Origin: a virus
Taxonomy: Duplodnaviria; Caudoviricetes
Length of the DNA: 44,295 nt
IMG/VR virus record: IMGVR_UViG_3300025837_000005
Coordinates: 1-44,295 of that record
Strand: one strand, 5' to 3'
Part shown: positions 361-43,437 of the stretch, one piece after another
Layout: each line of letters begins with the position of its first letter
How positions within the stretch are numbered: the stretch's first letter is position 1
Made by a program: the position numbers and the translations under genes
The notes under the pieces: model-generated
The model's database searches: none
What the model saw: the letters and a program-made list of their open reading frames with translations, nothing else
Told to the model about the DNA's origin: nothing

Positions 361-482
361 ATCAATTACTAATCGGCTATAAGCCGATAGTTTGCAAGTA
401 AGTCGGCTGAAGCCGACTCCCTGCGATAGGTTTATTGACCAAAACCCTACCTGGATAGCATGTAGCGTCCAAGTAATTTTGC
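361..482 (-). ncRNA. TnpB omegaRNA scaffold overlapping the tnpB 3' end; predicted guide GGGTGATAAATCCTTTATTA (reverse complement of 341-360)
   Basis: Position at element right end; hairpins ATCGGCTATAAGCCGAT and AGTCGGCTGAAGCCGACT; same block recurs at 20887-21008. Confidence 0.75.
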
Positions 483-1531
483 CGGATATTCCGGCTTGCG
501 TTTAAATCAGCATTGAGAAAGAAACCACAATGTTTACATTTAAAGATAGTTTGAGATTGACGGTTGGAACGGGAGATGTAGCCGCAAGCGGAACATTTCT
601 GGCTGGTATAACGAGCATCAACATACTTGACCTTCATCCCTCTGGCCTCAGCTTTGTAAGCAAGGAATTGCTCAAATTGGAAGAAGTTCCATTTATGCAA
701 CTCTTTACGTTGCTTTTTACGAAGCCTTACAGTTTGCCTGATCCCAGACAAATTCTCAAGGGCAATTACCGTTCCGTTATCAAGAGATTCTACAATTTGC
801 TTTGTTATCGCGTGGTTAGTATCAGTTCTGAAGCGGTTCTCCTTCTTAGATATTTTTTGAAGGTGTCTTTTAGCCGATTTGCTGCCACAAGATTGCAAAA
901 CACTTCTAATCTTTTCGTAACGCCTGGAAACTCTTTTAATTTGACCGCCGCCAAAGAATTGATTTTCAGAGGTAACTGCAATCTTCTTAATCCCCCTGTC
1001 AACGCCGACAACATCGCCGGAGAGTTCCGAATCGGAAACCTCCTTACTGAAAACTATATTCAGAAAAACTTTATTCTTTCTGATAAACAGGTCAGCGGAA
1101 CATCGTTTCCATGTAAGATATTGTCGAAAACATTCAGGAACAGAGACAGGGATTTTGATTCTTCCTTCGATAGTAAGCAGAGAAAGCTCGTTTCGTTCAA
1201 ACCAAACATTGAAACTTCGAGCATCATAACGAACAGAACATTGCTTGCTTTGTGGGCAGGTCGCCTTTTGTTTCTTTTTCAATTTTGCTTTAACGGCCTT
1301 AATGGCTTCAGTAGCTTTCATTCGGGCAGATACAGCAAGCTGGGACGGAAGATATTCTCTTGTTTTAAGATAGGTTTTGTTGTGCAGAGAAACCCCATTA
1401 GAATCGCTGTCATTCCATCCTACTTGACAAACAAAATTAAAAGCCTTTGTGTAGGCGTCCAACGTTGGTTTGATGCTTTCTACCGGGATATTAAGTTTAA
1501 GCTTTATGGTTCTTACAAGCTTCATGTTCAT
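377..1531 (-). CDS. tnpB: RNA-guided endonuclease TnpB
   Basis: RuvC motifs VGVDRG, IALENL, NADLNA all intact; Zn finger CSAC...CKHC; YTSQKCS motif; 384 aa. Confidence 0.96.
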   Translation of the reverse strand: MNMKLVRTIKLKLNIPVESIKPTLDAYTKAFNFVCQVGWNDSDSNGVSLHNKTYLKTREYLPSQLAVSARMKATEAIKAVKAKLKKKQKATCPQSKQCSVRYDARSFNVWFERNELSLLTIEGRIKIPVSVPECFRQYLTWKRCSADLFIRKNKVFLNIVFSKEVSDSELSGDVVGVDRGIKKIAVTSENQFFGGGQIKRVSRRYEKIRSVLQSCGSKSAKRHLQKISKKENRFRTDTNHAITKQIVESLDNGTVIALENLSGIRQTVRLRKKQRKELHKWNFFQFEQFLAYKAEARGMKVKYVDARYTSQKCSACGYISRSNRQSQTIFKCKHCGFFLNADLNASRNIRQNYLDATCYPGRVLVNKPIAGSRLQPTYLQTIGL

Positions 1532-1560
1532 ATAATAAGCACATTAAATATATTTGTCAA
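1532..1560 (-). promoter_or_regulatory. sigma70-type promoter of tnpB, likely giving a leaderless mRNA
   Basis: TTGACA-17 nt-TATTAT on the minus strand, directly before ATG 1531 / ATG 1525. Confidence 0.7.
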
Positions 1561-1629
1561 GAGGAAAAGCGCTAAAGCGACTCGCCTGAAGGCGAGGGTT
1601 TCCGCTTCGCTCCTCCAGGAGACGAGACA

Positions 1630-1740
1630 ATGAGCGAAATAAAAATTATTGAACTGACAAGCCTGAAAACTGAAATATTATTACTTAAGGGTGAATTAAC
1701 AGAGAAGAAAAAGAAATTTACGAAATTATCAGGGAAATAA
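1630..1740 (+). CDS. Small hypothetical protein (36 aa, MSEIKIIELTSLKTE...)
   Basis: ATG at the element junction with AGGAG upstream; stop lies 3 nt before the next gene. Confidence 0.45.
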   Translation: MSEIKIIELTSLKTEILLLKGELTEKKKKFTKLSGK

Positions 1741-1743
1741 ACG

Positions 1744-2586
1744 ATGGGAACTTGGTCATCGGGTGGTAATTTAGCAACAGCGAGAAGCCGTTTAGCAGGT
1801 TGTGGAACACAAGCTGCTGGGTTAAGTTTTGGGGGATATACTGGCGCTAATTCTGCTGTTACCGAGGAATATGATGGAGCAACTTGGTCAGCTGGTGGTA
1901 ATCTAGCAACAGCAAGAAGACTTTTAGCTGGTTGCGGGACACAAACTGCTGGGTTAAGTTTTGGGGGGTATAGTGATGCTAATTCTGCTGTTACTGAGGA
2001 ATATGATGGCACAAATTGGTCAGTTGGTGGTAATATAGCAACAGCAAGACATACTTTAGCAGGTTGTGGAACACAAGCTGCTGGGTTAAGTTTTGGGGGA
2101 TATACTAGCGCTAATTCTGCTGTTACTGAAGAATATGATGGCACAAATTGGTCATCGGGTGGTAATTTAGCCACAGCAAGACGTGGTTTAGCAGGTTGTG
2201 GAACACAAGCTGCTGGGTTAAGTTTTGGGGGATATAGTGATGCTTATTCTGCTGTTACTGAGGAATATGATGGCACAAATTGGTCAGCTGGTGGTAATCT
2301 AGCAACAGCAAGATATTCTTTAGCAGGTTGTGGAACACAAGCTGCTGGGTTAAGTTTTGGGGGATATACTGGCGCTAATTCTGTTGTTACTGAGGAATAT
2401 GATGGCACAAATTGGTTAGCTGGTGGTAATCTAGTAACAGCGAGAAACTATTTAGCAGGTTGTGGGACACAAACTGCTGGGTTAAGTTTTGGGGGATATA
2501 GTGATGCTTATTCTGCTGTTACTGAGGAATATACAGAACTAACAGAACTATTGATATTTATTCCATGGATTGGGGAATGTATGTAA
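1744..2586 (+). CDS. Kelch-like beta-propeller repeat protein, putative virion/receptor-binding protein
   Basis: Six ~47-aa repeats WSxGGNLATARxxLAGCGTQAAGLSFGGY...TEEYDG. Confidence 0.8.
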   Translation: MGTWSSGGNLATARSRLAGCGTQAAGLSFGGYTGANSAVTEEYDGATWSAGGNLATARRLLAGCGTQTAGLSFGGYSDANSAVTEEYDGTNWSVGGNIATARHTLAGCGTQAAGLSFGGYTSANSAVTEEYDGTNWSSGGNLATARRGLAGCGTQAAGLSFGGYSDAYSAVTEEYDGTNWSAGGNLATARYSLAGCGTQAAGLSFGGYTGANSVVTEEYDGTNWLAGGNLVTARNYLAGCGTQTAGLSFGGYSDAYSAVTEEYTELTELLIFIPWIGECM

Positions 2587-2834
2587 GTGAAGCGATTGCG
2601 TTAGAGAATAAATTATGCCGAACGGAATAATAGGCATTGAAGATTTTTGAGAAGAGCAAAGATGTTGATTGGAAACTTAATGTTTTTTTTAATCTAATCC
2701 CAAGAAGTCCCCAATCCTATCTTTGATAGGTGGGGGAGTGTTCACAACGATAGTTTCCTATATAAAAAAAATTGACAAACGTTTCGAGGCAGGAAATAGT
2801 CGATTTGTGAAGTTAGAAAAAAGGAGGCCACCTG

Positions 2835-3851
2835 ATGGCATGGACAATAAACGATTTAAAAAAACCAGGCGTCCGCGGTCTTTTATCAAACCGAACGTCC
2901 CCTGCGGCCAGGATTGCGCCTAAACCTGTCGTTCCGATAGCGGTTGATACAAAAAACCAGGCGCCTTTTAATGTTGACACCGTTGAGGGCCGCCTCAACA
3001 ACTTGTTGAGCAAAGACAACCCATATATTAAAACGGCCAGAGCAAATGCGGCTGAAGCGTCAAACCAAAGGGGCTTGTTAAACACCAGTATTGCGGCTGG
3101 AACAGGGGAGAAGGCTGCTATTGAATCAGCTTTTCCGATTGCGGCTCAGGATGCGAGCACGGCCAACGCCTTCAGGCAAAACGAGCAGGCATTTAATTAT
3201 AATGCCGCTCTTCAGAACGCGAGTGCGGCTAACACCCTCAAGCAAAGAGAGCAGGCATATGAATATGACCTCGCTCTTCAGAACGCGAACGCGGCCGACA
3301 TCCTCGAGCAAAACAAGCAGGCATATAAATATAACACCGCTCTTCAGAACGCGAACGCGGCCGACATCCTCAGGCAAAAAGAGCAGGCATTTAAATATGA
3401 CACCGCTCTTCAGGAAGCGAATGCGGCCGACATCCTCAGGCAAAAAGAGCAGGCATTTAATTATGATACCCAAATGCAGTCTCAGCTTTTTGAATACAAC
3501 GAGGCCCTCGGCCAAATGAACATAGATGCCGATTTAAAAGCAAGCACGTCGGAGAGCCTTCGACTCCTGGCACAGCAGAATATGACTGAAAGGACAAACA
3601 TCCTGACATCTCCGGAGCTCAATACGGAGACGAAAACGACTATGCTGAACGAGCTGAACGATTATACCACGCAGAACATGGCCCTCGTTGCTGAATTAGC
3701 CGGGTATGATGTCTCGATGTTTGATGAATCAGCCGGGCATAGTGCCTCGGATGAATCAGCCGGGCATAGTGCCTCGGATGAATCAGCCGGGCATAGTGCC
3801 CCGTTATATTATGACACGTATGGTCTCCCGGTATATTATCCCGGCATGTGA
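2835..3851 (+). CDS. Putative internal virion/DNA ejection protein
   Basis: AGGAGG RBS; NPYIKTARANA...NQRGLLNTSIAAG segment; Gln/Ala-rich 21-aa repeats; position before gp14/gp7-like genes. Confidence 0.6.
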   Translation: MAWTINDLKKPGVRGLLSNRTSPAARIAPKPVVPIAVDTKNQAPFNVDTVEGRLNNLLSKDNPYIKTARANAAEASNQRGLLNTSIAAGTGEKAAIESAFPIAAQDASTANAFRQNEQAFNYNAALQNASAANTLKQREQAYEYDLALQNANAADILEQNKQAYKYNTALQNANAADILRQKEQAFKYDTALQEANAADILRQKEQAFNYDTQMQSQLFEYNEALGQMNIDADLKASTSESLRLLAQQNMTERTNILTSPELNTETKTTMLNELNDYTTQNMALVAELAGYDVSMFDESAGHSASDESAGHSASDESAGHSAPLYYDTYGLPVYYPGM

Positions 3852-4504: not shown

Positions 4505-5289
4505 CTGTAGCAGCGGCAGTAGGAGGAGGTCTGGCTGGCTCGGCGGCGGCCGTTGGTGTATCAGGCTACCTCTCTTCGATAGCTGTCGGGGCGATCGTCG
4601 GTGCTGTTGTGGGTGGCGCTATCTCTGCGGTCGGCGCAGCTATAACAGGCCAGGACGTTGGCAAGTCGTTTAAAAGCGGGTTAATTTCAGGCGGCATTGC
4701 CGGAGCAATCGGTGGGTACGTCACAGCTAGTAGCACCATGGCCATGTCTGAAGGAAACGCCGTCGGCGGCGGCGCGCAGGCAAGCGGGGCTGGAGGAAAC
4801 GCCGCCGTCGGCGCGCCGGCAAGCGGGGCTGGTGTTCCCCTTAAAGCGTCGCAGGCCGGTCTTTTGCAAGAACAACCAGTTTCCGGCGCGGTAAGCAGCG
4901 CCCCGGTTAAGGCGGGGACTACAGCAGTCAACCCAACCGGGAACGTCGCGGAAGGATTGGGTAATGCCATAAAGACCCAGGCCGTTGCCGAACAACCAAC
5001 GCAGCAGGCGGGCCTCCTTAGCGGACTCGGAAAGATAATGCCTAAGTCAGAATTTGGGAAATATGCTGTTCTTGTAGGAGGGACGACCGCCCTTGGCAGT
5101 GTTTACCAGGGAATGTCCGAAGATGAAAGGGCTGCAAAAGCTGAAAGATTGGTGGAAGAGAAACGGCAGCGGCTTAATACGAGCCTACTCGAAGCAGCTC
5201 CGATGTCTCCGCCTATGAGCTTTGGCTTTAAAGACAATAGGTTGTTTTTTAGTCCAAGCTACAGCAACAGATATTTGGAGACGATGTAA
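4486..5289 (+). CDS. Gly/Ala-rich DNA transfer (ejection) protein, P22 gp7-like
   Basis: AAGGAGG RBS before ATG 4486; hydrophobic Gly/Ala-rich N-terminus. Confidence 0.6.
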   Translation: MATAVIAVAAAVGGGLAGSAAAVGVSGYLSSIAVGAIVGAVVGGAISAVGAAITGQDVGKSFKSGLISGGIAGAIGGYVTASSTMAMSEGNAVGGGAQASGAGGNAAVGAPASGAGVPLKASQAGLLQEQPVSGAVSSAPVKAGTTAVNPTGNVAEGLGNAIKTQAVAEQPTQQAGLLSGLGKIMPKSEFGKYAVLVGGTTALGSVYQGMSEDERAAKAERLVEEKRQRLNTSLLEAAPMSPPMSFGFKDNRLFFSPSYSNRYLETM

Positions 5290-5969
5290 TGAGAAAAACG
5301 AAAAAAAGAAAGCAAGCGGCGAGGCAGCCACGCGGCCAGGAACTGCCGGCTAATTTTGACCAGCAGGTCGAGCAAGTGACGGCGATGGCGATGTCCATCA
5401 TCTACGATGAGAAGAACGGCATCGTCGAAAGACAACTCCCAGATGCGTTACAGGATGCACAACAGATCGTTCAAGGAGAAGAGGATGTTATCCCTTCTGC
5501 TATTGCGAACGTTGCCTTGTGGGTATTGGCTACCGTTGAAGCGAACATTGAAAGCAAGGGCCATTCCGTCAGGCCGATTGTTGTTCTTGGGGCTATCGGC
5601 AGGATCGTTGCCGAGGTCTCGGAGGCTGCACAGGCAACCGGAACTGTCCAGATGAATAAAGAGGATATTCAGGTTGCGATAGCCGCTGCAATTAGTCTAT
5701 ATATCTCGCAGGCAAGGAAAGAGGGTAAGGTTACAAACCAACAGCTTATAGAGGCAATCAAGGCGCTCCAGAAAGCGTATCCGAAAGAAGCCGCCAATTT
5801 TCAACAGATGATACAGGCAAGGGCTCAGCGACAAGCCACTGGCCAGGGCAAAATCCTGGCTCAGCCCGGCATGAAAGGGTCGGTACAGCCGCTTGTTAAA
5901 CAAGGCATGGCAGGCCAAGCGCCCAAACCAGGATTACTTGGAGGCGCCAGGTCAACTACCGTCAGTTAA
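5289..5969 (+). CDS. Hypothetical virion-module protein; last 5 residues supplied by the inserted element
   Basis: Start overlaps upstream stop (TAATG); removing 5951-6297 restores GCC AGA TGA. Confidence 0.7.
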   Translation: MRKTKKRKQAARQPRGQELPANFDQQVEQVTAMAMSIIYDEKNGIVERQLPDALQDAQQIVQGEEDVIPSAIANVALWVLATVEANIESKGHSVRPIVVLGAIGRIVAEVSEAAQATGTVQMNKEDIQVAIAAAISLYISQARKEGKVTNQQLIEAIKALQKAYPKEAANFQQMIQARAQRQATGQGKILAQPGMKGSVQPLVKQGMAGQAPKPGLLGGARSTTVS

Positions 5970-6297
5970 AGCAGGCGGCTTGTAACTGCACTCCGCCGCA
6001 ATTTCCCATAAGGGGTTTTGGCATCATCGTGCGTTACGATACGGCTATTGACTGAGCCGCTACCTGGATAGCATATAGCGTCCAAGTAATTTTGCCGGAT
6101 ATTCCGGCCAGCATTAAGATCAGCATTAAGAGAGAAACCGCAATGTTTGCACTTGAAGACAGATTGAGATTGACGATTGGAATGGGAAATGTATCCATAA
6201 TATGCACATTGAATGCTTTTATCAAGAAAAATCTTTTAAGAAAGGAGGACGGCATTTCTCTCCCAGCTAAAGCAGGGAGTTTCCTGCCGTGTGATTT
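5951..6297 (-). mobile_element. Internally deleted IS200/IS605 derivative (PATE/MITE-like) with omegaRNA, tnpB 3' remnant and promoter
   Basis: Right end ...GGTAGTTGAC; left-end hairpin CTCCCTGCTTTAGCTGGGAG; 6060-6195 similar to tnpB 3' end; TTGATA-17-TATTAT at 6225-6197; followed by ATGA. Confidence 0.88.
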
Positions 6298-7313: not shown

Positions 7314-10300
7314 ATGGCTCTTTTAAAATATATCCGGGAGAAAAACGGCGGCCTCCCAAACATAGATTCTTTTGCTCTTGCCAAAGCGGTTTATGACGCG
7401 AATCCGAAGTATCAAACAATGTCGTTTGATAACTTTGCCAGCGCTGCTGGAATCGAAGAAGATATAGCAGCGACAAGAAGCGGTTTAAAGGATACTGCTG
7501 CTGCCGTTATTGAAAGCGTTCCTGTTGCGGGCATGGGTCTGCTGTCATCCGCTGTTGGCGCCATAAAGGGCGTCAGTAAAAATGCCGGGGTATATGCAGA
7601 AGACCTTACGATGGCAGAACGGCTTCAGTCTAAGTCTGATAAAATGACGGCGGAGTATCTTCAGAAGCATGGCATAAACACAGGTGATAAGTTTTTAGGA
7701 CTAACGCCTGCTGGGGTTGCACAGGCCATGTCAAACATGGGTTACACCGGCCTGGGCATGGTGTCCGGCGGTGCTGGCGGTGCTGCAGGGCTGGCTGCAA
7801 CCGGAGGGAACCCGGTTGGCGGTTATGTTGGCGCTGGTGTTGCTTCAGCCGGAGTGCTAACATCTGCCGCTAAAAACCAAATCATGCGCGCCTACCGGGA
7901 TGCCCTGAATGAGAAAAGGGAAGAAGCGGGTGAGCCTATTCTGTCAGATAAAGAATGGTTTGAAACAGCAGCGGCCTTCAATAAAGAAGCCAATAAACAC
8001 GCCCTCTGGGAGTCCGGCCTCGAGACAGCCGGGGAGCTTCTCGAGTTTGGCGCTATTACCGCCCCGCTCAAAAAAATAGTTGGAAAAGAAATAGCCGAGC
8101 GGATGGCTAAAAACTGGATAGGGAAGACCGCAAATGTTGGCGTCCGGAGCGCGGCTGCAAGTGGATCAGAGCTTGCGACAGAAGCGGTCACACTTCTCAA
8201 ACAAGCGCCGATTGAAAAAAAAGCTGGTCTTAGAGAAGACGTACCTGAAAATTTTCTCGAAGCCGTTAAAGAGGTTTACCCGGTTGTCATGCCGATGGCG
8301 ATTATAGCTGGCGGCGGGGCGAAGTTGGGTCATGTCGCATATAAAAAAGCGTCTGAAAGAATAAAAGAGGCCAAAGAGAAGCGGGCTAACACCGCAGTGG
8401 AGCAGGCAAAAAAACTGGCGGAAAGCCTTATCGGGAAAGAACCCTCTGATACCGGACTGAGAGACCGGGATTTAGCTATTATCGCAGAAGAGATACTGAA
8501 CGATATTGAAACAGGGCTTTATGACAATCCGGCGGTAGCCAACGACTTGGCCGGTGAGGTTGAAAGAACCCCGGGGCTTTTGGATGCCATTGAAAAAGCA
8601 AAGAATGTGCGGGTTGGCGTGATCCCTACCCCCGCCACGCCCAGTCCGTCTTTATCTGAAACCAATCTCGGGCCCGACTTTAAGAATGCCCCGGTAAACC
8701 GGTCCGCTCTCGACGCTGAGGATTCAGAGAAAAACAGGATTCGGCAGGTTTATGCCCTGAAACAGCAAATTGCTGCCGTAAAGCAACAAGCTCCCGGGGA
8801 AACACAAACTCCGTTCCGGGCCCGGGTTATCAAAAAGCTTGAGGCAGACCTGGAGGCCCTTGGCCCGGTTAATCTTTCGGCAGAAGCTGCAAAGCGGAAC
8901 CAGGTTGTTCTCTCCGGCATGAAGCCTGAGATCGCCGGTTTTAATGTGCCGAAGACAAAAGAGGACGTTTTGGCAGAGCAGGCTTTAGCAGGGGCCGAAG
9001 AGACCGCTTGGGCCGACGAGCAGAAGACGATACAGAAACAACGCAACGATCAACAAGTCATTTCCTTAAGGAAGAGGCTTGCGGATCTCAAAAAGCAGAA
9101 ACAGACCAAGCCTGTAAAGAAACAGATAAAAGAGACGGAAGATCGTCTGGGCTCGCTGAAGCCCGCGGATATAATTCGCCAAAAAGCAAGGGAAAACCAA
9201 GCCCGAATTGATGCCGGGCTGTTCCCAGAAGAATTCCCGGAGCCTCGGACATTTGAGAATGCCCCGGTAAACCGGCTGGCCGGGAAAGCGAAGACTTTGG
9301 CCGATATGTCGGCAAGCCTCCAGACGACCGAAACAAGGGGTGTGGCGACCGATAAAGAAGGAAATCGATATTCTTTCGGTGCATCGTCTCCAAGATGGTT
9401 TACAAAACTGAACGAAAAGACGAAGTCTGTAGGGCAGGAGTTTTTTTCCAGGAAAGAAATTGACGTACTCGCAAGGAAATACGTCTCCAGGGCGAAGCTG
9501 ACGGCGAAACAACGTCAGCGCATGTTTCTTCTTGATCAGGCGGTCACCGATTTTGAGAACGAAACTGGTAAAGAGAAAAAAGGAACAGTAACCCCTTCTC
9601 CTGAGACGCCCCAAACAATCTCCAGCGAACCACTGGCTGCACCACAGTCTGACGTAACCAACACCCTTACCCCAACCGATAACAAATTGTTACCAGTTGC
9701 AGAAGCCAAATCAGTCCCCGCCGAAGTTCTGAAAGACTACCCGGACCTTGCGGCAAAAACAAAGCCGGCAGCATGGGAATCAAGTGAGCTTGTCCAAAGT
9801 CCGAACATCCAGATAGACAGAACCGAGGCAAAGAAGCAGGCCGATGGATCGTTTAGGCTGTTCTTCCGTGGCACTCGCAATGAGGTTTTTGCCGGGCAGA
9901 CGTTCGGGTCCGCATCCGAGGCCCGTCAATTTTTTAAAGTCCAGCAGGCAAAAGCGCAGCAGGATGCCGCTTCCAGCAGAAAAGAACCTGACGACAGCCC
10001 GAAATTCAGCCTGACTGAAGACAAATCTCTTTATATCACACACAATATCACCGAAGACAAGCTGCGCCATGCGCTAGATCTTGGTGGATTGGCAATGCCA
10101 TCCTCCGCCGTGTCTAGTATTAAAAACGAAGCAATGGTGAAATTTGGGGATATTTCTCTTCTCGCGCACCCTAATTTTTTACAGTCTGGTAAAGTGCGTG
10201 TGTTTGACGCCGATATTTATTCTCCGCGCTACCCGGCAGCCAAATATGATATTAACGAAAAAGCCATTACCGATTTTAATAAATGGATAGATGGGGACTG

Positions 10301-13300
10301 GAACCCATTCGTGTCGACACAAAACAAGTGGTCCGGCCATCTTGATGGTTCTGACATACAGGGCCATGGCCTAGACGCCATTTTAAATAAAAATTCTGTA
10401 AAGTATGCATGGCTTCGGGATAATGGTATTGCTCCCAAAATAACCAAGAACACGGAATCGCCGTATAAATCATTGAGCCAGGCTTTCAGGTCTCATAAAA
10501 CAGAAAACGCCTTCCGTACTTTCGTAAGGGAAAAGTTTAAAACACTCGTTACCGGGCGCAAGATTTTAAAAGGAGTTACCTCTTTAGGCAACCGGAGGTA
10601 CATACCGTATACTCTTGATAATATTATAAAACAAATGCGGTCGGGCGCATTGCGTAGTGGAGAAGCTTCTTTTTACGGCGTCGGCAGCATCCGAGCGTCA
10701 CATGCAAAAGAATACAAAAGCCTCGGGAGCATCAAAAAAGACAAGGACCGGCTAGTTAACTCTGAACAAATGAACAAAATTAAAAATGACCTACAAAACC
10801 AACTGTCAGATCTTCTTGAATCGTTGAAACCGTTTTATAAATTTGAATCAACGTCGTTTGGTTATTATGATGACGCAGGTCGCGCATTAGCTGAAGGGCG
10901 CCATGGTATAAACGAAACCTTTAAAGAGTTGCCGAAAGAGGCGCTTGATAAGATTGACGCTTTTTTAAAATCTTTAAAAGAGGCGCCGACTGAATATTTT
11001 GAAGCGAAGGCTCAAAGGATTGTCGGTTTTAACGAATTTCACACGGCAGTTGTGCCAAAAAACACATCGCCGGACGTTGTTGCCGCACTAAAAAAACACG
11101 GTCTAGCCATCAACTATTACAAGAACGGCGACAATGCCGACAGGCAGCGAGCTATACGGAAAGCCGATAAGGTGTTGTTCCAGAAGACCACTTCTCTAGG
11201 CAGCGGCTTTCCCATTGCCGAAGTTAAGGCCATTGTTTTGCCACTTTTGAACAAGCTGACCGCTGGACCAAAGGCTCACTTCGTTCAGTCAGAAGCGGAG
11301 CTTCCCCCCAGGATTATAGACATCATCCAGCGAAAAAACGCATCCGGGCAGATTGTCGCCGTTAATGATCGTGGTGACATCTATTTCGTGGCAGACAATA
11401 TCCGTTCGACCGAAGATGCAGAGTCTGCATTCCTCCACGAGGTGTTCGGGCACTACGGTGTTGAGGCGATTCTCGGCAAGGAAAAAGCCAAGCGGTTTTT
11501 CACCAGCGTCTGGATGAGCAAGCTCAATGACCCGGAGTTCATGAAAATCGCCACTACCTACGATTCAGACCTGTCCACGGTTGCTGGCAAGGTGGAAGCG
11601 GCCCGCGAATATGTGGCAAAGCTGGCAGAATCCGGAGTAGACAACTCACTAATTACGAAATTGATCGGCATGATCCGGGGCGCCCTGCGGAAGTTGGGCG
11701 TGAAAATGAAGATCAGCAACAACGATATCCGCCAACTAATTGCCCTGGGCGCCCGGCAGATGAAGGGGGTGCGGTCTAAACTGCTCGTTGCCGAAAAAAC
11801 TGTTAATTTTCAGATTGCTGAAATGGTGAAGCATGTGCTCGGCATTAAGTTAGACCCGGCACAACCATCCGACGATGTTTTTTTTATGCGGACCCCCGCT
11901 CCTACTCCCGCCCCGATGATTGACAATTTCAAGGCGCTGAAGAAAGCGTTCGGCGAAACGACAGCCAGGGTGATTCGGGGTAAGATGCCGATTGCTTATG
12001 ATCACAGTGAAGAATTGATTGCTTTTCTTCAAAAGAAAGTGCCCGTCAAGTCGCATCTCCCCTACATCATCACAAATATGGGGATGGAGTTAGAGGTAGA
12101 GTTTTTATCCGAGAAGATGATCATTGTAGCGCCTGTCAAAGAAAAACTTACGCTGTCCGCTAAGGAGTTAGCCGAAAAAGCAGGATATAGGCTGACGGAG
12201 ACGAAAACTCGAAAAGATGTTCTTTCGTTTCGGTCAGATTACTCAAGAAACAGTGTAATATGTACGTACAATGACATAGAAGGCCGGTTGCGTGACCGTT
12301 TTATATTCTGGTTGCGCCGGTATAATGCTGATGTAACGCCGAGGGCCGAAGAGTTAACACAAGATAATCTTACCCCGGAATGGAAAAAATATCTGGAAAA
12401 AAGGGGTTGGTTAAAAGATGACGGGACGTATGCCCTGTCTGGGCTAAAGAGAGAACGGGAAGATCCTTATGGTACGTCGTCAATGTGTGTGCAAATCTGG
12501 CGTAAAAACGATAAATCAAAGGGGTCATTATGGATTCTCAACAGATATAATCATACCCTTCAGGACGGGAAAAATCCCGATGTTACATATAATAGAAAGC
12601 TAAACAAAATTATAGATGGTCTTGAGGACGCCATTTATGATTATGTAAAGATAAAAAAACCCGCAACGACCACGGACACGCCCGTCCTCTCCCCCGGCAT
12701 AGTCGAAGACGCGCAAGGGAGCCTATATCACTATGCCCGTGAGCGGAATGGCGTATATTGGGGCGACGGTTTTATTATGAGTGGTGGAGCGGCTACGATT
12801 GTCAACCCGGGCATTGAACGAGTGGTGGAGGGGTTTGTTCTGCGGGCTGACGGGATTGTAAATGGGGTTGGCTTATTCGCCAACTACGAGAACAGCATTT
12901 TTAGCCTTATCGGCAAGACCCGCTTTGGCAAAAAAGGGTTGATTGAGTGCACTACAAAAGACAACAAAAAGTTTTCTTTTTTTGTGCAAAATGGGCAGAT
13001 AATAAGATTCGATACCGGCGATCTTACTGAAATCAGCGGCTACTCCCTGTGCGACAACGCCGCCCTGACTTCAATTGCCCTGCCGAACGTGACTACCATT
13101 GGCGCCTTCTCCCTGAGTTACAACTCCGCCCTGACTTCAATTGCCTTACCGAACGTTGAAACCATTGGTAATAGCTCCCTGCGTGACAACGCCGCCCTGG
13201 CTTCAATTGAACTGCCGAACGTTAAAATCATTGACAACTACTCCCTGAGCGGCAATGCCGCCCTGACTTCAATTGAACTGCCGAACGTGACCGCCATTGG

Positions 13301-16300
13301 CAACTACTCCCTGCGTGACAACGCCGCCCTGGCTTCAATTGCCTTACCGAACGTTGAAACCATTGGTAACAACTCCCTGAGCAACAACCCCGCCCTGGCT
13401 TCAATTGAACTGCCGAACGTTAAAATCATTGACAACTACTCCCTGAGCGGCAACGCCGCCTTGGCTTCAATTGCCTTACCGAACGTGACCACCATTGGCA
13501 ACTACTCCCTGAGCAACAACGACTCTCTGACTTCAATTGCCTTACCGAATGTGACCACCATTGGCAACTACTCCCTGCGCGGCAATGCCGCCCTGACTTC
13601 AATTGCCTTACCGAACGTGATCACTATTGGCAACCACTCCCTGCGCAGCAATGCCGCCCTGACTTCAATTGCCTTACCGAACGTGATCACTATTGGCAAC
13701 CACTCCCTGTGCAACAATGCCGCCCTGGCTTTAATTGAACTGCCGAACGTGACCACCATTGGCGACCTCTCCCTGATCGACAATGCCGCCCTGGCTTCAA
13801 TTGCCTTACCGAACGTTGAAACCATTGGTAACGATTCCCTGAACAACAACCCCGCCCTGGCTTCAATTGAACTGCCGAACGTGACCACCATTGGCAACTA
13901 CTCCCTGAGCGACAACGCTGCCTTGGCTTCAATTGAACTGCCGAACGTTAAAATCATTAGCAGCTACTCCCTGTGCAACAATGCCGCCCTGGCTTCAATT
14001 GAACTGCCGAACGTTAAAATCATTAGCAGCTACTCCCTGTGCAACAATGCCGCCCTGACTTCAATTGCCTTACCGAACGTGATCACTATTGACAATTACT
14101 CCCTGCGCGACAACGCCGCCCTGGCTTCAATTGCCTTGCCGAATGTGACCACTATTAGCAACAGCTCCCTGAGCAGCAACCCCGCCCTGACTTCAATTAC
14201 CCTGCCGAACGTTGAAACCATTGGTAAAAACTCCCTGCGCAACAACGCCGCCCTGGCTTCAATTGCCTTGCCGAATGTGACCACCATTGGCAACTTCTCC
14301 CTGAGCGACAACGCTGCCCTGGCTTCAATTGAACTGCCGAACGTGACCACCATTAGCGACTACTCCCTGAGCAACAACGCTGCCCTGAAGAATATTATTT
14401 TACCTTTCGGGAAGAAAATTGTCCGCAACAACAAGACGTTTACGGGTGTGAGAGCCGAAGATCAGGATAAGCCGCTGTTTCAAACCGTAAAGGCAGGCGT
14501 CTCAAATTTTTCCGGCGTTACCACAAAACAGATACGGTCTTTTTTTAAAGGCCTTGATTCCGGCCGGTCGCCGGATGGTAAGGTCTGGGTTCGGATCGGC
14601 AAGCGAATCGTAATCGTGGAACAGGTGGAGGGGTTGATCAACAAGAGACAGTTTGTGGCCACCCTGTCCATCCGGGATCCCGGCAAAGCGTTCGGTGCAT
14701 ACAAGAACAAAACCATTTATTTATCTTCCCTGGGTGATAAATATACGCTGGCCCATGAGGGCATCCATCTTCTGGATGACATCGGTCTGATAAATAGGCT
14801 GGAGCAGACAGTTATTGAAAAGGCGGCCGGTGTTGAGCGTGGGGCCTCTGTCGGTGACCGAGCTGAAGCAAGGGCTGAATATCTTACCGCCTTATTGGAG
14901 GCCCGCGAGAAAACCCGCAATACGGTCCTGGGCCGAATCGTGCAAAAGGTGCGGGATTTTATTGACGGCCTGCGGGCGCTGTTTGGGGCGACGGTCGGGC
15001 AGGTGGCCAAGGGTATTGAGACCGGGCAGGCGTTCCAGAGAGAGGCCGGTAAGGGTGAGAGTGGGGCTGGCAAGATCATCCCCCTGCTCGAGCGGTTCAA
15101 CGACCAGAGCGATGATATCCGGTTCCAAACAGTAGGCCCTGCCGATGCCCTTGGCACAGCCGATACAATCGACAAAAAAGCCGCTGAGAAAACCAGAAAG
15201 GCCGTCGATGCAATTATAGCCGACATTAAAAAAACCACAAAGAAAAATACTATCACGGTCTCTGAGACAAAGGCCCGGAAGCTGGCCAGTGATTACGTTT
15301 TTCTTAAGACTATGATGAAAGACAACAGCGTTGACTTAGAGCAAAAAATAAAAGAATACAAGGCTTTCCTTATGAAGTTGCCCCCCGGCGTCAGAGCGAA
15401 AGCGCTGGCCGGTATGCCGAAAATAGTCACGGCAAAAACCAAAAAGACGCGGCAAAAATATTTTGACCAGGTTATCGTTCAAGCGCAAAAGTTTCTCTCC
15501 GAAGAGGTTAAAAAAGAACTCCGCCGAGACATCCATAAACTGCGTCGCAAACCGCGCACGGCCAAAGGCGGAAAGGTAAAAAAGAACGTCCTCTCCCAGC
15601 TTGAAAAACTAAACAAAACCGTTTTTGGTAAAACCCCGATAAATACAATGCCGGCGGCTGAGTTTCATATCAACGCCTTATCAAAACAGCGGGAGACGCT
15701 AGAGGAAAACGTTCCTGATTCGGACAACAAGATTGCTACAAACAAGTGGTTTTCAGATATCGAAGACATTGACCAGAAGATTGCTCTGATAAATACCTTC
15801 GGTGGCATAAAGGAAATGTCCGAAGCGCAGCTTGTCAATGCTTATGAAGAGTTACAGAGGATAATCGCTGAAGGCCGGACAAAATGGCAGGTAAGTGAGG
15901 CCATACGGAAACAAAAAATGGAGGAAATCCGGGGACGCCTTGACCGTGAGATTACTGGCGAAAAAGCCCCGAAGCCGGAAACCATTGGTCAAAGAAACCA
16001 GAGAATCCGTGACCAACAAAAAGCGTGGAACCGGATCGCCGACAAACTATCTCAATTCGATACCATACATCAAAGCTGGCGGTTCTTGATGGACAAACTG
16101 GCCAGAAAGTCCGGGAAGGGTACGCTGAAGTCCGACGCGGTTGAGATTATCGGTGGGGCAGCTCATTACGCAACAAACGAAGAAAACGCGCTCAACGGTG
16201 CGGCGATTGCTATGATAACGAAAAAAGTGAAGGATTTGATCGGCGGAACGGGGCACAAAGTCAAGAGATGGGTTGATAACCAATCAAATAAAGAGGATCT

Positions 16301-24417: not shown

Positions 24418-24424
24418 ATATGGC

Positions 24425-25835: not shown

Positions 25836-25954
25836 GAGCGGAACTATGCAATTTAAAATTCGCCCATCAGATCGTGTGATCCCATCCTCTCCTTTTGTTG
25901 ATTTCATTATAACACGGTTTTGATGGACGATTTTTCTTTGGAGGCTCCATGAAA

Positions 25955-26192
25955 AATAAAGCCCAATATTTTCGCTTGACAACGCCGCCAGTCGATGACA
26001 TGGTGACGATAACCTGGAACTACGACATGCCCAGGAAAACACGCAGGGGAGAAAAATATCCCTCACAAAACTTTACGTGCGCACCCCGAGTCAGGACTCG
26101 GGCCTGACGGCAACGATGCTCTCTCCCTGGCAGCCCTGCCATAGAGTTTCCCCTGCACATCGTTGTCTGTCAAGTGGGGTGCGCATTTTTTA
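25955..26192 (+). ncRNA. Promoter plus structured RNA candidate, copy 2
   Basis: Near-duplicate of copy 1 with pairing-preserving changes; immediately upstream of the primase. Confidence 0.55.
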
Positions 26193-26209
26193 AAGGGGAA
26201 AATTGTTTT

Positions 26210-28516: not shown

Positions 28517-28664
28517 AAAAAGAAATGGTCGGGTGGATGATTTTGACTCTTCAAAAATTACGGCCGCCATCACGAAAGCCGGACAGACCACTGAAGAATT
28601 TGGTGAAAAAGAAGCAAAAAAAATGACGTTGCGCGTCTTGATCCTTCCGGGCCGGTCACGGTGA
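28500..28664 (+). CDS. Truncated stand-alone ATP-cone fragment (ribonucleotide reductase N-terminus-like), 54 aa
   Basis: Hand translation MFNHIKKRNGRVDDFDSSKITAAITKAGQTTEEFGEKEAKKMTLRVL; GAGG RBS. Confidence 0.7.
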   Translation: MFNHIKKRNGRVDDFDSSKITAAITKAGQTTEEFGEKEAKKMTLRVLILPGRSR

Positions 28665-28750
28665 ATTTCAACGGGCTGGAATTGCTTTTGCGGCGGTCGG
28701 AGATCCGGATTATTAAGATGATGGCTTGTATATCAACGAGGAGGGATTTT

Positions 28751-29776
28751 ATGGCTAAATTAAAAGCACCGTTCCCATATTTTGGAGGAAAATTAAGAAT
28801 GGCCTCTCTAATTTGGAAAGCACTTGGGAATCCAAAACATTACATCGAGCCTTTTTTCGGGTCTGGCGCTGTGCTTCTTGCGCGGGAAAGATTTAATCCG
28901 GCAGAAACAATAGAGACGATATGTGATAAAGATGGATTTTTGGCGAACGTTTGGCGGTCTTTACAGCAATGTCCGGATGAAGTCGCGAAATGGTGCGACT
29001 GGCCCGTGAATCATGTCGATTTGAACGCTCGGCGGCGGCGGTTGCTTGCCGAAGAACCAGCCCTTTTAAAAAATCTTGCAGAAAATGACGAATATTGTAA
29101 TCCGAAGCTGGCTGGATATTGGGTTTGGGCGGCGTCCTGCTGGATCGGTTCGGGCTTGACGCGTTTAAACGCGATACCCTCTATCAGCGACAGCGGGATG
29201 GGGGTGCACGCCATTGGGCAGATCCCCCACATCAGCAGCAGCGGGATGGGGGTGCACGCCATTGGGCATATCCCCCACATCAGCGACAGCGGGATGGGGG
29301 TACACGACCCGTACAATACCAATATTTATAAATTATTCAGGCAATTATCAGAGCGGTTACGGTATGCCCGGGTAGTGTGCGGCGACTGGACTCGTGTTTG
29401 TGGTGGCAAATGGCAAGACAAAGCTGGTGATGTCGGTATTTTTTTTGATCCGCCATACGGGGTTAAGGATAGGGATTTGTTTTTATATCGTCACGATTCA
29501 TCAACCATCGCTGCCGATGTTATGGCCTGGTGTAAGGAGCGCGGTAACATTCCATCATATCGCATTGTCCTGGCAGGCTATGAAGAATATCAAGAGTTGA
29601 TTGAAAATTACGGTTGGAAGGCTCAAGTATGGCAATCAAATGGCGGATATGCCAACACGAGCACCAATAAAACCCGTGGAGACGATAATAAAAAGCGGGA
29701 ATGTCTGTATTTTTCACCGTATTGTATGAAGCAATTACAACAGGGGGAGCTTTTTAAGTCAACTACCGCCAGCTAA
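28751..29776 (+). CDS. DNA adenine methyltransferase (Dam/D12-like)
   Basis: PYFGGK, EPFFGSGAV, DPPY; three internal 15-aa repeats. Confidence 0.88.
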   Translation: MAKLKAPFPYFGGKLRMASLIWKALGNPKHYIEPFFGSGAVLLARERFNPAETIETICDKDGFLANVWRSLQQCPDEVAKWCDWPVNHVDLNARRRRLLAEEPALLKNLAENDEYCNPKLAGYWVWAASCWIGSGLTRLNAIPSISDSGMGVHAIGQIPHISSSGMGVHAIGHIPHISDSGMGVHDPYNTNIYKLFRQLSERLRYARVVCGDWTRVCGGKWQDKAGDVGIFFDPPYGVKDRDLFLYRHDSSTIAADVMAWCKERGNIPSYRIVLAGYEEYQELIENYGWKAQVWQSNGGYANTSTNKTRGDDNKKRECLYFSPYCMKQLQQGELFKSTTAS

Positions 29777-30001
29777 AGCAGGCGGCTTGTAACTGCACTC
29801 CGCCGCAATTCCTCATAAGGGGCTTTGGCATCATCGTGCGCTACGATACGGCTATTGACTGAGCCGCTACCTGGATAGCATATAGCGTCCAAGTATTTAT
29901 ATAATATGCACATTAAATGCTTTTGTCAAGAAAAATCTTTTAAAAAAGAAGGACGGCATTCCTCTCCCAGCTAAAGCAGGGAGTTTCCTGCCGTGTGATT
30001 T
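29758..30001 (-). mobile_element. Minimal IS200/IS605 derivative: left end, promoter and omegaRNA only
   Basis: Near-identical to both ends of 5951-6297; TTGACA-17-TATTAT (29929-29901) abuts the scaffold; followed by ATGA. Confidence 0.88.
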
Positions 30002-30107
30002 ATGACTACCCATTATGCTGAAGACAAACTCGCCCGTGCCCAAGCCCTTGGCTACCAGGATTATTTATCCGCAATTAAGGAATAAAGGATAATTCTTGAT
30101 GCCATCC

Positions 30108-30209
30108 ATGACACTTCATGACACTTGAAGGGCATTTTCATATTAGCCCCAGAAAAAAGCCCTAAGGGCATTTTAATGAAAATGCCCTTCAAGTGTCATG
30201 AAGTGTCAT
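30108..30209. repeat. Perfect 34-bp inverted repeat followed by an AT-rich tract; candidate replication origin
   Basis: ATGACACTTCATGACACTTGAAGGGCATTTTCAT (30108-30141) and its reverse complement (30176-30209). Confidence 0.8.
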
Positions 30210-30366
30210 AAAAGTTGCTAATATATTGAAATTATTAAGTTTTTATAAAAACACGGTAAATTTTAGGCTAAAGAATTGAAATTATTAAGAAAATACCCTA
30301 AAAAATAAAAAAGAGATGGACTTTGTAAAGATTAGACGAAAACGGAGTTGATGACATGGTGTAAAA

Positions 30367-30745
30367 ACCATGCAAATCCAGATCAAAAATCAGATATGGT
30401 TCAAGACCGTTTTTTGTGTTTGGTTAGCCCTGTCTAAAACTCCGTTGGGATAAACACATGGGTCGATGGAACGGCAAGGTGGCCAAAAAGGTGGGTAATT
30501 AAGCACTCACAGTAAAAAAAAGGGGGAAACCATGCAAATTCGGATTAAAAACCAGATATACCTCTCAGACTACCTTAAATCGTTCAGGACCATTCTTTCT
30601 ACTCGGCTGGTCTAACCTACCCTCACATGGATTGAAAATGAGCGTATGGGGCAATGGAACGGCAAGATGCCGCAATCTCTATGCTGCTTTGAAACCGATC
30701 CGGCTGGCAACCTGACCATCCTGCGCGGACATACCCCGCACCTTT
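30367..30745 (+). pseudogene. Two decayed copies of a bacterial helicase-like N-terminal fragment
   Basis: Twice MQI(Q/R)IKNQI and MG(R/Q)WNGK; second copy continues WIENERMGQWNGKMPQSL...LTILRG with interruptions. Confidence 0.45.
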
Positions 30746-40723: not shown

Positions 40724-41977
40724 ATGGGACAATTATGGTCAGTTAATACTCTCGGGGGCTATATGTACTCCGACAATCTAAGCGCTGAGCTGCGGACCGC
40801 GGTTCAGCCGGGTCTGAGATTCCGTTAAGATAGGCGGAATTAAAACTTTGCTATATGCGGGAACGAACTGAGTATATATCACTACCAAAGTGTAAAAATG
40901 TGATATTGCAGTCAATCCGCAGGGAAGTCAAATATGGTATTTTGACCCCCCAACGACTACACGCAGAGCAAACTCAGTATTTGAGTTTGATGATATAGTC
41001 TGGACTTACGGGCGACCGTAAGAGGGATTACGAAAAGAAACCCCGCCTCAGTAGAGGTCAGTAGGCTTTAGCCTGTCCGCCGGATGACAGGCGGGGCCGA
41101 AAGCAACAGATTGCAGTTTTGCGATGTCAAAGACCCTGAGCAGAGCAAGCGGCACAAGGGTGCTATATTTCACTGGAACGTTTATTCGGACGTTGAGACG
41201 CAGGGTAAAAACCTGGCGGAAACCAGCGTTATGCCTGAAACGCAGTTCACCATCACTCCAGGGACTCTTACCATTACGGAATATGGGAACTCCGTACCTT
41301 ACACCGGGATACTCGATGAGCTTTCTGAACATCCCGTGAAAGAGCTGATTCACAAGGTTTTGAAGAACGACTGTAAAAAGGCTCTTGACACCGCTGCACA
41401 CGATCAGTTTAAGCAGACTCCGTTACGAGTTGTACCGGCGGACAACGGTGCCAGTCTTGACTCCCTTGTCATGACTGAGAACGGCGCTACTACCATAACG
41501 AACAACGTTGCGATGGGGAAGAATCACATTAAGGTGATTATCGACACCATGAAAGAGCGGAATATTCCGCCCTACATGGAAGAGGATTACTACGCCATCG
41601 CCCGGCCGTCCACTTACAGAACGTTTAAGAACGACTTGGAGACTATCAAGCAGTACGTTGAGACCGGGTTCGGCCAGATTCTCCGTGGGGAGATTGGCCG
41701 ATACGAAGGCTGTCGGTTCGTTGAACAGACGAATATCTTGGCTGGGATCGGATCCACAGCGGATGCGCCTTGGACAAACGCCATGTCTGACTGGGCATTT
41801 TTCATGGGCGAGGACACCGTAGCAGAGGCTGTCGCGGTTCCCGAGGAAATTCGTGGAAAATTGCCCGGCGATTTTGGGCGAGACAAGGGCATCGCATGGT
41901 ACGCGCTTTTGGGATACGGTCTGGTTCATACTGACGCAACTCAGGCTCGCATTATCATGTGGGATTCTGCTGCATAA
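40724..41977 (+). CDS. Major capsid protein (N4-gp56-like), spliced: join(40724..40825,41114..41977), 321 aa
   Basis: Exon 1 MGQLWSVNTLGGYMYSDNLS...LRFR joins in frame to QFCDVKD...; TITEYGNSV, GEIGRYEG, DFGRDKGIAWY; AGGAGG RBS. Confidence 0.88.
40826..41113 (+). ncRNA. Group I intron without ORF (288 nt)
   Basis: Exon-terminal U in P1 (TTCCGT/GCGGAA with G-U pair); ATGCGGGAA and AATCCGCAG core; R CGACTACACG and S GATATAGTC forming P7; terminal G; removal restores frame. Confidence 0.88.
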
Positions 41978-42000: not shown

Positions 42001-42456
42001 ATGAGTTACGCAAACCCGAAATATAGCGTTATCCATCAACATCGGTTCACCGGTAACGATGCTTCGACGTTATTACTTACTCCCATAGCGGGCACGAGCA
42101 CCGCGCTAGAAAATAGTCTCACCTGCGACCCGTGGAATCCCGGCCGGGCGATCACCCTGAAGAAGTTGTCGTATCAGGTGAAGACCCCCCGGACCGATTC
42201 CGGCAGTAGCCTGGAGATCGAAGTTCACAACGTCGATGTCAACAACGGCGATGTCAAGGTGGGTAGCCTGGTTATTACCGGCACGGCCGCAAATGGCATC
42301 GTTACGATGCCTGCTGATTTGGATTCCAAGATTGCGGCGGACGGGTATGTCGTGCTGGTTGCTAAATCGACCACAACGGCTGCAAACGAGAATTCTGCCA
42401 TTGGCCAGGCGAGTATCACTTATCAGGAGACCTATTGTCTAACAGGTGACGAATAG
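42001..42456 (+). CDS. Putative capsid decoration/minor structural protein
   Basis: Beta-rich ORF immediately after the capsid gene; AAGGAG RBS. Confidence 0.6.
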   Translation: MSYANPKYSVIHQHRFTGNDASTLLLTPIAGTSTALENSLTCDPWNPGRAITLKKLSYQVKTPRTDSGSSLEIEVHNVDVNNGDVKVGSLVITGTAANGIVTMPADLDSKIAADGYVVLVAKSTTTAANENSAIGQASITYQETYCLTGDE

Positions 42457-42570
42457 CGCATAACGTGAAGCAGGAACCAAATACTATTTAAGAAGTGGTC
42501 TTAAATGGATAAATTTTAGAGAACGGATACAATCGTAACCATCTACAACAATTGGAAAAGGAGCGTTAAT

Positions 42571-42714
42571 ATGGACGCATTAAAAGAAGGCTTGTCCGAA
42601 AAGATCGATATTTCCAAGGTTGACCCGGATCTGGAGCGTCATGGACCTAATCAGGTGCCTAAGAAGACCGGGGAGACCGTCAAGAGAGACGGCAAGAGCT
42701 ATAAAATTAAGTGA
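42571..42714 (+). CDS. Small hypothetical protein (47 aa)
   Basis: AAGGAG RBS; MDALKEGLSEKIDISK... Confidence 0.6.
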   Translation: MDALKEGLSEKIDISKVDPDLERHGPNQVPKKTGETVKRDGKSYKIK

Positions 42715-42769
42715 ACACCAAACCGCTACGGGGGGGGGGCCTCCCGTAGCTCTAAAAGGAGGTTAAAAC

Positions 42770-42958
42770 GTGGCCTACTTTTCTGCTAAGCCTCCGGTGC
42801 CGGACGCCAAAAAAATGCACGACCCGGAATTCACCAAACAGGATATTAAAAAGGGTTTTTCGGTTTCCCCTATGTATGGGAAAACCGGTGAGCCTTCCAA
42901 TATACTAACTGTTCGAAACCGAGAGTGGCGCAAGGAAGTGGAGAATGCTTTCGGGTAA
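42770..42958 (+). CDS. Small hypothetical protein
   Basis: AGGAGG RBS, GTG start; current stop supplied by the inserted element. Confidence 0.65.
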   Translation: MAYFSAKPPVPDAKKMHDPEFTKQDIKKGFSVSPMYGKTGEPSNILTVRNREWRKEVENAFG

Positions 42959-43079
42959 ACTACCGTCAGCTAAAGCAGGCGGCTTGTAACTAACAGATAG
43001 AAACTGTTGCTACGATAGTCTATTCGTTAAGCAAAATCTTTTATAAAAGGAGGATGAGCAATTTCTCGCTCAATTTATT
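42955..43079 (-). mobile_element. Highly eroded IS200/IS605 derivative (same family as 5951 and 29758)
   Basis: GTAAACTACCGTCAGCTAAAGCAGGCGGCTTGTAACT right end; AAAATCTTTTA..AAAGGAGGA..GCA.TT remnant; ends at ATGA. Confidence 0.75.
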
Positions 43080-43244
43080 ATGAAACTAGACAAAAAAAGA
43101 CCGTTTGGAGAGATTTTGGGTAAGTCTCCCAAGCCAGGCGCAAAGTTTGAACAGGATGGAAACTATTTTAATAGCGTTGGGGATTTAGTCGGGCCAGAGA
43201 AGCCCGCGGTTAACCCGGAGACGTCCAGGCGTCCTCGAAAGTGA
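43080..43244 (+). CDS. Small phage protein (54 aa, MKLDKKRPFGEILG...KFEQDGNYFN...)
   Basis: Hand translation; flanked on both sides by IS derivatives at its start and stop. Confidence 0.65.
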   Translation: MKLDKKRPFGEILGKSPKPGAKFEQDGNYFNSVGDLVGPEKPAVNPETSRRPRK

Positions 43245-43437
43245 ACGCTCCCCTGAATAAATTCAGGGGCTTCTCAGTTCAACGAGGGGCATTACAACGC
43301 CGCCTCTCCCTGAGCGTTTAGATGGTTTGGACGGTTCTCGCCCTACCATATTTAGTTGTCCAATTATCGCATTCTTTTCCGGTAAATCTTGAGGTAAGCC
43401 GGCCGAACGCGACAACTCTGGTTCCATGCGGGGTGAA
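43241..43437 (-). mobile_element. IS200/IS605 derivative of a second family carrying a TnpB-type omegaRNA scaffold
   Basis: Minus strand GTAGGGCGAGAACCGTCC...AACGCTCAGGGAGA...CTCGTTGAACTGAGAAGCCCCTGAATTTATTCAGGGGAGCGTTCAC; followed by ATGA at 43438. Confidence 0.78.

Follow-up and report, generated by a model that had tools for sequence, protein, structure and literature searches.

Elements in the phage genome

In this study, we analysed a tailed-phage genome (IMG/VR record IMGVR_UViG_3300025837_000005) that carries one complete tnpB transposable element, named E0, together with five further stretches, E1 to E5, that resemble parts of such elements. The window, namely the whole stretch of DNA analysed, comprises the 44,295 bases of this viral record, which is 83% complete by CheckV; the genes annotated on it are those for a terminase, an SU10-type portal and adaptor, capsid, primase and methylase, as well as yqaJ and ssb, with domain annotation covering 35 of the 168 open reading frames (ORFs). 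A preliminary description had proposed that the TnpB nuclease of E0 may be served by these stretches as dispersed guide-RNA (omegaRNA) cassettes. The five stretches were confirmed at their positions, all on the minus strand; at most three of the five are cassettes that this TnpB could use. The features of the locus are as follows.

361-1629, minus strand: E0, a tnpB-only IS605-family (IS1341-type) element; TCAT at 1630-1633 precedes the left end, the right end TTGAT lies at 361, and the ends were assigned from homologous loci.
377-1531, minus strand: intact tnpB of E0, 384 amino acids, with Pfam domains PF07282 and PF01385 and the residues D178/E259/D342.
1532-1560, minus strand: sigma70-like promoter of E0, a consensus match alone (11/12).
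341-475, minus strand: predicted omegaRNA of E0, with the scaffold at 361-475 (four stem-loops, a GUCAA loop pairing with the 3' end) and an intergenic guide at 341-360.
5951-6297, minus strand: E1, a sister-subfamily element with both ends, a promoter at 6225-6197 (10/12), the final 60 tnpB codons and a whole scaffold at 5951-6088.
20713-21095, minus strand: broken and rearranged second copy of the 3' half of yqaJ, containing E2 and a 21-bp tandem repeat.
20887-21008, minus strand: E2, which is 98% identical to E0 and consists of a scaffold (20887-21001) and a further 7-8 nt, with its guide at 20867-20886.
21329-21352, minus strand: near-target of the E2 guide in the phage's own working yqaJ (21035-21973), matching at 19/20 with the mismatch at position 7, after GCAT and not TCAT.
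29758-30001, minus strand: E3, a 244-bp palindrome-associated transposable element (PATE) with a left end, a promoter at 29929-29901 (11/12) and a scaffold at 29758-29895 that starts 6 nt past the -10 box.
42955-43079, minus strand: E4, a 125-bp decayed sister-subfamily remnant without promoter, stem-loop 1 or pseudoknot (GUCAA) loop, ending in TTTAC.
43241-43437, minus strand: E5, a remnant of a different tnpB clade with the right end TTCAC, a tail (43266-43361) matching P0121 and an uncertain left boundary.

The intact tnpB element

The active site of the E0 tnpB is intact and under purifying selection, as the preliminary description had held for its catalytic residues. The RuvC triad D178, E259 and D342 aligns with acidic residues of AsCas12f1, two CxxC motifs are present, and dN/dS, the ratio of nonsynonymous to synonymous change obtained with a custom counting script, was 0.08-0.18 against seven relatives over 345 codons. 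The best structure matches of the protein were Cas12f1, with AsCas12f1 at the top, and a TnpB (PDB 8j12, 9nzp); of its 626 homologues at E <= 1e-100, those with names are IS605 OrfB transposases or TnpBs. The OrfB_IS605 and zinc-ribbon domains, together with the intact RuvC D/E/D, are those of an IS1341-type element, and the subterminal hairpins at both ends, the outer left tetranucleotide TCAT and the lack of a target duplication are those of IS605 ends. The preliminary description gave the ORF, 377-1531, and the element extends beyond it on both sides. The promoter-like box ends at 1532, 6 nt ahead of the second ATG, which, given general sigma70 spacing, points to this ATG (1525) as the probable leaderless start of tnpB.

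Two other identities were considered for E0. A TldR, the nuclease-dead TnpB derivative that acts as a transcription factor, was rejected on the presence of the RuvC residues, and a CRISPR-Cas12f system was rejected since no array occurs among the 20 largest repeat families and every guide is the local flank. In the left end of E0 (1610-1629), an outward-facing AGGAG lies 8 nt ahead of the downstream start codon and could give the flanking gene a ribosome site.

In agreement with the preliminary description, no Y1 TnpA (PF01797) was found in this record or in 5/5 overlapping viral records, nor was any TnpA found among the 94 ORFs flanking 51 family loci, where the few annotated neighbours were mainly phage genes. 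A survey of the family with the stem-loop 1 motif as query gave 61 metagenome loci. In other contigs, about 50 distinct right flanks were collected for the family, a diversity that implies mobility; the 56 guides collected include three chance matches within genes (L026, L031 and L036). In read contigs, the depth over the element bins was higher than over most flanking bins, as expected of a multi-copy family.

Element ends and insertion sites

TCAT precedes the left end in eight homologous viral loci, and further loci agree. Because TCAT precedes the element across the family, it is the likely target-adjacent motif (TAM), as had been suggested before. The right ends displayed for these viral loci are TTGAC, except in E0's own allele (TTGAT). 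These ends fit the guide-pairing rule of TnpA, by which the left guide GANA suits TCAT and the right guide CAAG suits TGAC. The E0 combination of CAAA with TGAT would be a compensatory pair, while three other flanks have TGAT with CAAG; since the guides of L026, L031 and L036 are chance matches, the idea comes down to E0 alone.

A minus-strand TCAT is a plus-strand ATGA, the sequence of a stop/start overlap between genes. When E1, E3, E4 or E5 is excised in silico, a stop and a start codon overlap exactly at the junction; E0 lies ahead of a start codon. The E1 guide (5931-5950) is the end of the gene at 5289-5969, and the E3 guide (29738-29757) the end of the methylase gene. As a rough baseline, 7/320 ATGA sites are such overlaps. 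This siting is read as the survival of harmless insertions. Within the window, no TCAT-preceded match to any of the window's guides was found, and none of the guides of other family loci matches the window after TCAT.

At least three element lineages

The five stretches had been described as derivatives of this tnpB, which holds for E2, 98% identical to the E0 right end, and fails for the other four. E1 and E3 are 95% identical to each other; they have stem-loop 1 and the scaffold structure alone in common with E0, and differ from it in the left end and the 3' half of the scaffold. E4 is of the same type, with the E1/E3 right-end hairpin and likewise a left end and 3' scaffold half other than those of E0. 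A full-length E1-type element in another contig (L092), which has the left flank of E1 and a different right flank, encodes a TnpB 86% identical to that of E0, and contig joints place full-length forms of the E1/E3 type in the samples. BLAST paired E5 with none of E0-E4, phage and plasmid records contained no match to it, and its matches in viral contigs were limited to the same phage; a promoter search found none in it. The tail of E5 agrees at 30/32 with P0121, which is a TnpB with a helix-turn-helix domain, 25% identical to the E0 TnpB. By these identities, the window holds at least three element lineages, not one, because E2 is E0-like, E1, E3 and E4 belong to a sister subfamily, and E5 stems from a TnpB of 25% identity.

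E1 and E3, the latter with its entire tnpB deleted, have both insertion sequence (IS) ends and no intact protein-coding gene, and are PATEs; E4 is counted with them, its left end being reduced and its right end altered. Without stem-loop 1, E4 is predicted to be unable to guide and is likely inert toward the E0 TnpB. The E5 scaffold is foreign, predicted not to be served by this TnpB, and likewise likely inert toward it.

Scaffolds also appear in other combinations: in one locus (L015), a coding-sequence end 95% identical to E0 is joined to a scaffold 97% identical to E3. Separately, the elements of L005, L087 and L092 share one flank with the window and have a different other flank, which may reflect module exchange at the element or assembly chimeras. 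The joining of different left and right modules by the same element in these three loci would suit a role of the cassettes as portable homology blocks at module borders, and the E0, E1 and E3 promoters, which oppose the flanking genes, would suit antisense regulators of the flanking operons. That the cassettes persist mainly in such roles, and not as guides, is very improbable: neither role predicts the scaffold boundary or the covariation described below, and the swapped loci may be chimeric.

Scaffold structure and guide-only derivatives

An omegaRNA-like scaffold had been attributed to four of the five stretches, and three remain predicted to be compatible with the E0 TnpB: E1, E2 and E3 carry the whole scaffold of a family whose effector the same genome encodes elsewhere. 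A structure common to E0 and these three was supported. The same four stem-loops are predicted for E2 (z of -5.6) and for E3 (z of -2.2), and the GUCAA loop of stem-loop 2 is complementary to the terminal UUGAC, forming, in a by-eye reading, a pseudoknot. The predicted fold of E0 has three of the four stem-loops, because the E0 guide competes for stem-loop 2. Stem-loop 2 covaries among 36 distinct sequences: at each of its three inner pairs, the types A-U, G-C and C-G are all represented and 30-33 of the 36 are paired, in a set that contains one chance match and three rows out of register. The conservation of stem-loop 1 is not independent evidence, since it overlaps the search motif and the coding frame. 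No Rfam family matched the scaffolds.

The deletions that removed tnpB are not evenly placed. In 7/10 gene-less lineages, the breakpoint lies no more than 17 nt upstream of the stem-loop 1 motif, and the other three keep 31, 89 and 110 of about 1057 nt; the binomial probability of such clustering is about 5e-11 under a uniform model over the 1057-nt interval. Twelve gene-less types entered this count, from which L091 (another element's end precedes) and the L105 type (junction of L111) were dropped; L110/L126 were excluded for want of a right end, and the independence of lineages was judged by eye. Further, two deletion types with different left ends, found in 9/61 loci, have the motif 6 nt past the -10 box, which is the spacing of E0's second ATG and hence the predicted start of the tnpB transcript. 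The second of these promoter-plus-scaffold types stands at four unrelated flanks, which implies that it is mobile. The breakpoint clustering and the promoter-scaffold fusion appear as signs of selection on guide-only cassettes, and this repeated natural minimisation to promoter and scaffold predicts the omegaRNA 5' end.

We consider the window to hold one intact TnpB element and gene-less IS605 derivatives, of which E1, E2 and E3 are probably selfish elements that home with nothing but a guide and depend on a TnpB produced elsewhere. It is considerably less probable that the remnants are inert relics, in which case E0 would guard its own site only and the others would have decayed by microhomology deletion, tolerated between genes with their guides unused. 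Decay of this kind is seen in E4 and in an element of a related contig (L065), both without the 5' scaffold, and E5 is foreign; the junctions of E1 and E3 each fall at a brief ATAC/TAC similarity by the start codon, and four of the six elements stand in low-cost stop/start overlaps, compared with the rough baseline given above. Relics would not be expected to have breakpoints clustered at stem-loop 1, nor an exact promoter-to-scaffold fusion in two types, one of them mobile, and the scaffold stems of E2 and E3 are unbroken.

Two further kinds of locus were observed in the survey. A third gene-less type, found at three different flanks (L118, L124 and L129), carries a conserved stretch of about 190 nt, not derived from tnpB, upstream of its scaffold. 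In L105/L120, a scaffold without a left end stands after TCAT and eight duplicated flank letters and is flanked by a short direct target repeat, and L116 has an element with tnpB sequence at the same site; L105/L120 look like the product of an aborted gap repair.

Insertion-free alleles in the same samples

The preliminary description had called for a search for empty alleles in related phages, and such alleles were found both in a related phage (L065, see below) and in the same samples. For the span 20500-30400, 24 runs were listed, all groundwater or aquifer metagenomes and none of them an RNA run; read-contig joints were examined in six of these, for E0 to E3, and indicate presence only. 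A joint skipping E0 occurs in run X10 (depth 15.5) and run X17 (depth 5.3) and omits 1267 letters, compared with 1269 from the assigned ends. Two joints in X10 skip E3, one of them with an intact ATGA at the junction, and one joint in X19 skips 20718-21098, namely the yqaJ duplicate including E2. Insertion-free forms of E0, E2 and E3 therefore occur in the same samples. Among assembled viral contigs, a scan with the E0 right flank gave filled loci in 5/5 cases, and scans with the gene preceding E1 gave identical loci in 3/3.

E2 and the yqaJ gene

E2 has no left end, no promoter and no TCAT of its own; it lies in the same orientation as yqaJ and ssb. Its left end and about 60 nt of flank are missing, and 31 nt of flank remain beyond the scaffold before the next break. 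E2 was therefore rejected as a PATE and is a right-end remnant.

The E2 guide has a match in the working yqaJ, positioned at 21348, that is preceded by GCAT and carries the mismatch in the seed. In the related contig L065, yqaJ is single-copy and 91% identical, and the site has TCAT followed by a 16/20 match to the E2 guide with the first nine letters matched. As L065 has TCAT there, the insertion site would have carried the TAM, and the sole near-target within this genome lacks it. Such a loss of the TAM at the self near-target is what survival with an active guide would need. The layout, with a conserved neighbouring gene as the target and a self allele differing by substitutions, resembles that of intronless homing. 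At 3697-3800, after the gene following yqaJ, L065 also has a remnant of the E0 subfamily that lacks stem-loop 1.

The processing of guide RNA from longer transcripts by TnpB has been published (PMC10278001). E2 could be a transposon-free guide gene that is transcribed with the recombination operon, loaded on the E0 TnpB and used to cut the yqaJ of sister phages, its own copy having escaped by the TAM and seed changes; together with E1 and E3, it would form a natural, multi-guide and RNA-directed form of inter-phage marker exclusion. We regard this sequence-based reading as tentative and, taken as a whole, rather unlikely.

E2 also bears on the preliminary description's proposal, by which TnpB would be a multi-guide weapon domesticated by the phage, with immobile cassettes kept since cutting competitors in several modules raises the share of the phage in mixed infection. 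This RNA-guided marker exclusion would explain why E2 is immobile and pared down to a scaffold with 31 nt of flank, why it runs in sense within the recombination operon and why it is aimed at a gene of which the phage's own copy is without the TAM. Every near-identical viral contig found carries the cassettes in identical or almost identical form, and conjugative plasmids are described as gaining an edge over insertion-free rivals from TnpB (10.1101/2025.02.20.638934). Against this, E0, E1 and E3 retain transposon ends, the family stands at about 50 right flanks elsewhere, the alleles are polymorphic in the population, and the guides are local flanks, none of them acquired from a foreign target. 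The same anatomy is expected of selfish homing with no benefit to the phage; domestication fits E2 best, yet predicts nothing beyond selfish homing, and we hold it to be improbable as the explanation of the locus.

Proposed mechanism of guide-only homing

In the favoured explanation, by which E1, E2 and E3 are selfish homing elements, a TnpA from elsewhere in the cell would have placed full elements after TCAT, and insertions would have survived chiefly where the TCAT lies opposite the ATGA of a stop/start overlap. Internal deletions would have taken out tnpB and left the promoter and omegaRNA. The E1, E2 and E3 RNAs would then be loaded by the E0 TnpB or by one that a sister element encodes on a co-infecting genome, each guide being the cassette's own right flank, and during mixed infection the complex would cut TCAT plus flank in insertion-free sister genomes. 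After the cut, repair from the carrier would copy the cassette, or else the cut genome would be lost. E2 would have struck yqaJ within the reading frame, the phage retaining a working copy without the TAM, so that the E2 guide would now cut the yqaJ alleles of other phages only. Any benefit to the phage would be at most a by-product: the earlier suggestion that the phage, and not the elements, is the beneficiary found no sign in its favour. The same family and the same kind of gene-less derivative occur at many unrelated sites in other contigs.

Several observations weigh against this explanation. No joint skipping E1 was found among the joints listed, and the joints that skip other elements come from contigs aligned at 85-88% likeness, the short sides being 21-48 letters long, and may stem from other organisms. 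The lowest-energy fold of E1 deviates in its 3' half, and its -35 box is weaker. A microhomology hot spot by the start codon could account for part of the breakpoint clustering, and anchoring the survey on stem-loop 1 hides derivatives that lack it, three of which were met by chance (E4, the L065 element and L009). At about 12% divergence between the yqaJ copies upstream, GCAT and the seed change are not beyond chance, and L065 has four mismatches to the E2 guide. Finally, a tree of 19 TnpBs, with three loci without a start excluded, leaves the relation of scaffold type to protein lineage unsettled, and L015, L087 and L092 may be assembly chimeras across the repeat.

Other features of the phage

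A group I intron (Rfam RF00028, 70.8 bits) at 40782-41113 on the plus strand splits the major capsid gene behind its first exon (from 40724) and has no endonuclease ORF; the relatives L034, L035 and L036 likewise have group I introns in the capsid region. Capsid-gene insertions of about 930 bp in L038 (7452-8379) and L039 (549-1476) have a 256-amino-acid frame and no Rfam match, and are intein- or intron-like. On the plus strand, 7314-18053 encodes a 3579-amino-acid protein with a PBECR5 nuclease-like domain and a 66-bp BspA-type leucine-rich repeat array, and 132-bp tandem repeats at 1744-2586 encode a beta-propeller-like repeat protein (phrog_27227), with many joints among the repeats in the reads. 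Three tandem phrog_18326 paralogues with alanine-rich repeats, each preceded by a conserved 30-nt block, lie at 22031-24235 on the minus strand. A perfect 34-nt inverted repeat with an inner hairpin, origin- or operator-like, adjoins the left flank of E3 at 30108-30209.

Comparison with known systems

The predicted scaffold, with two conserved 5' stem-loops and a 3' stem-loop, corresponds to that described for derived TnpBs by Nety et al. (PMC10278001). The best structure matches likewise point to Cas12f1 and its derived TnpB neighbours; here no CRISPR array was seen among the 20 largest repeat families, and the placement in the derived clade is putative.

Gene-less cassettes served in trans have been reported in bacteria. 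PATEs often encode omegaRNAs that require TnpB in trans, and those of Geobacillus stearothermophilus resemble E1 and E3 in being gene-less, with IS ends and omegaRNAs that need the TnpB of another element, the cut at the empty site restoring the element (Meers et al., 10.1101/2023.03.14.532601). The Geobacillus PATEs belong to a bacterial chromosome and to restoration after excision, whereas the present elements belong to a phage population in which filled alleles occur beside empty ones, and include E2, which lacks a left end. Standalone omegaRNAs of OMEGA systems likewise work in trans, one effector using the guides of other copies and of standalone omegaRNAs, and their biological role is stated as unknown by Altae-Tran et al. 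(2023, PMC10691335). Here, natural targets are identifiable in co-occurring genomes, and breakpoints cluster at the promoter and scaffold start, a sign of selection that does not appear in the text consulted of that work. The locus offers one enzyme, three natural guides and a predicted TAM, together with target, escape and empty alleles from one population; with enzyme, guides and natural alleles together, the role of standalone omegaRNAs is directly testable here.

For selfish drive, the nearest system is the IS605 TnpB in plasmids, which cuts insertion-free replicon copies, biases inheritance and gives an edge over similar rivals (Mears et al., 10.1101/2025.02.20.638934). That system consists of plasmids with one complete element in engineered assays, and its main text contains neither the word "phage" nor "in trans", whereas candidate guides in trans are found here in a phage. 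A review (PMC13565253) has a category of "non-restorative transposon homing" into co-infecting phages or plasmids, with evidence from plasmids and a theoretical status for phages; TnpB drive is shown in plasmids, not phages, in the literature considered. Our search by title and abstract start, with most subscription journals and supplements outside it, found no paper describing an active TnpB in a phage together with guide cassettes scattered over its genome.

E2 is closest to the T4 SegF-type endonucleases of intronless homing, or localized marker exclusion, in which a neighbouring conserved gene is the target and the self allele differs by substitutions (PMC13565253). Recognition there is by protein and here by a predicted RNA guide, so that E2, if it works, would be an RNA-guided counterpart of intronless homing; the reading of E2 as a guide gene, if true, would mark a step from a selfish TnpB toward inter-phage interference with no CRISPR array. 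In summary, PATEs served in trans and plasmid TnpB drive have already been published, and the window presents elements of a kind already known in a setting that is new for them, where the E2 variant and the population evidence make the role of such cassettes testable.

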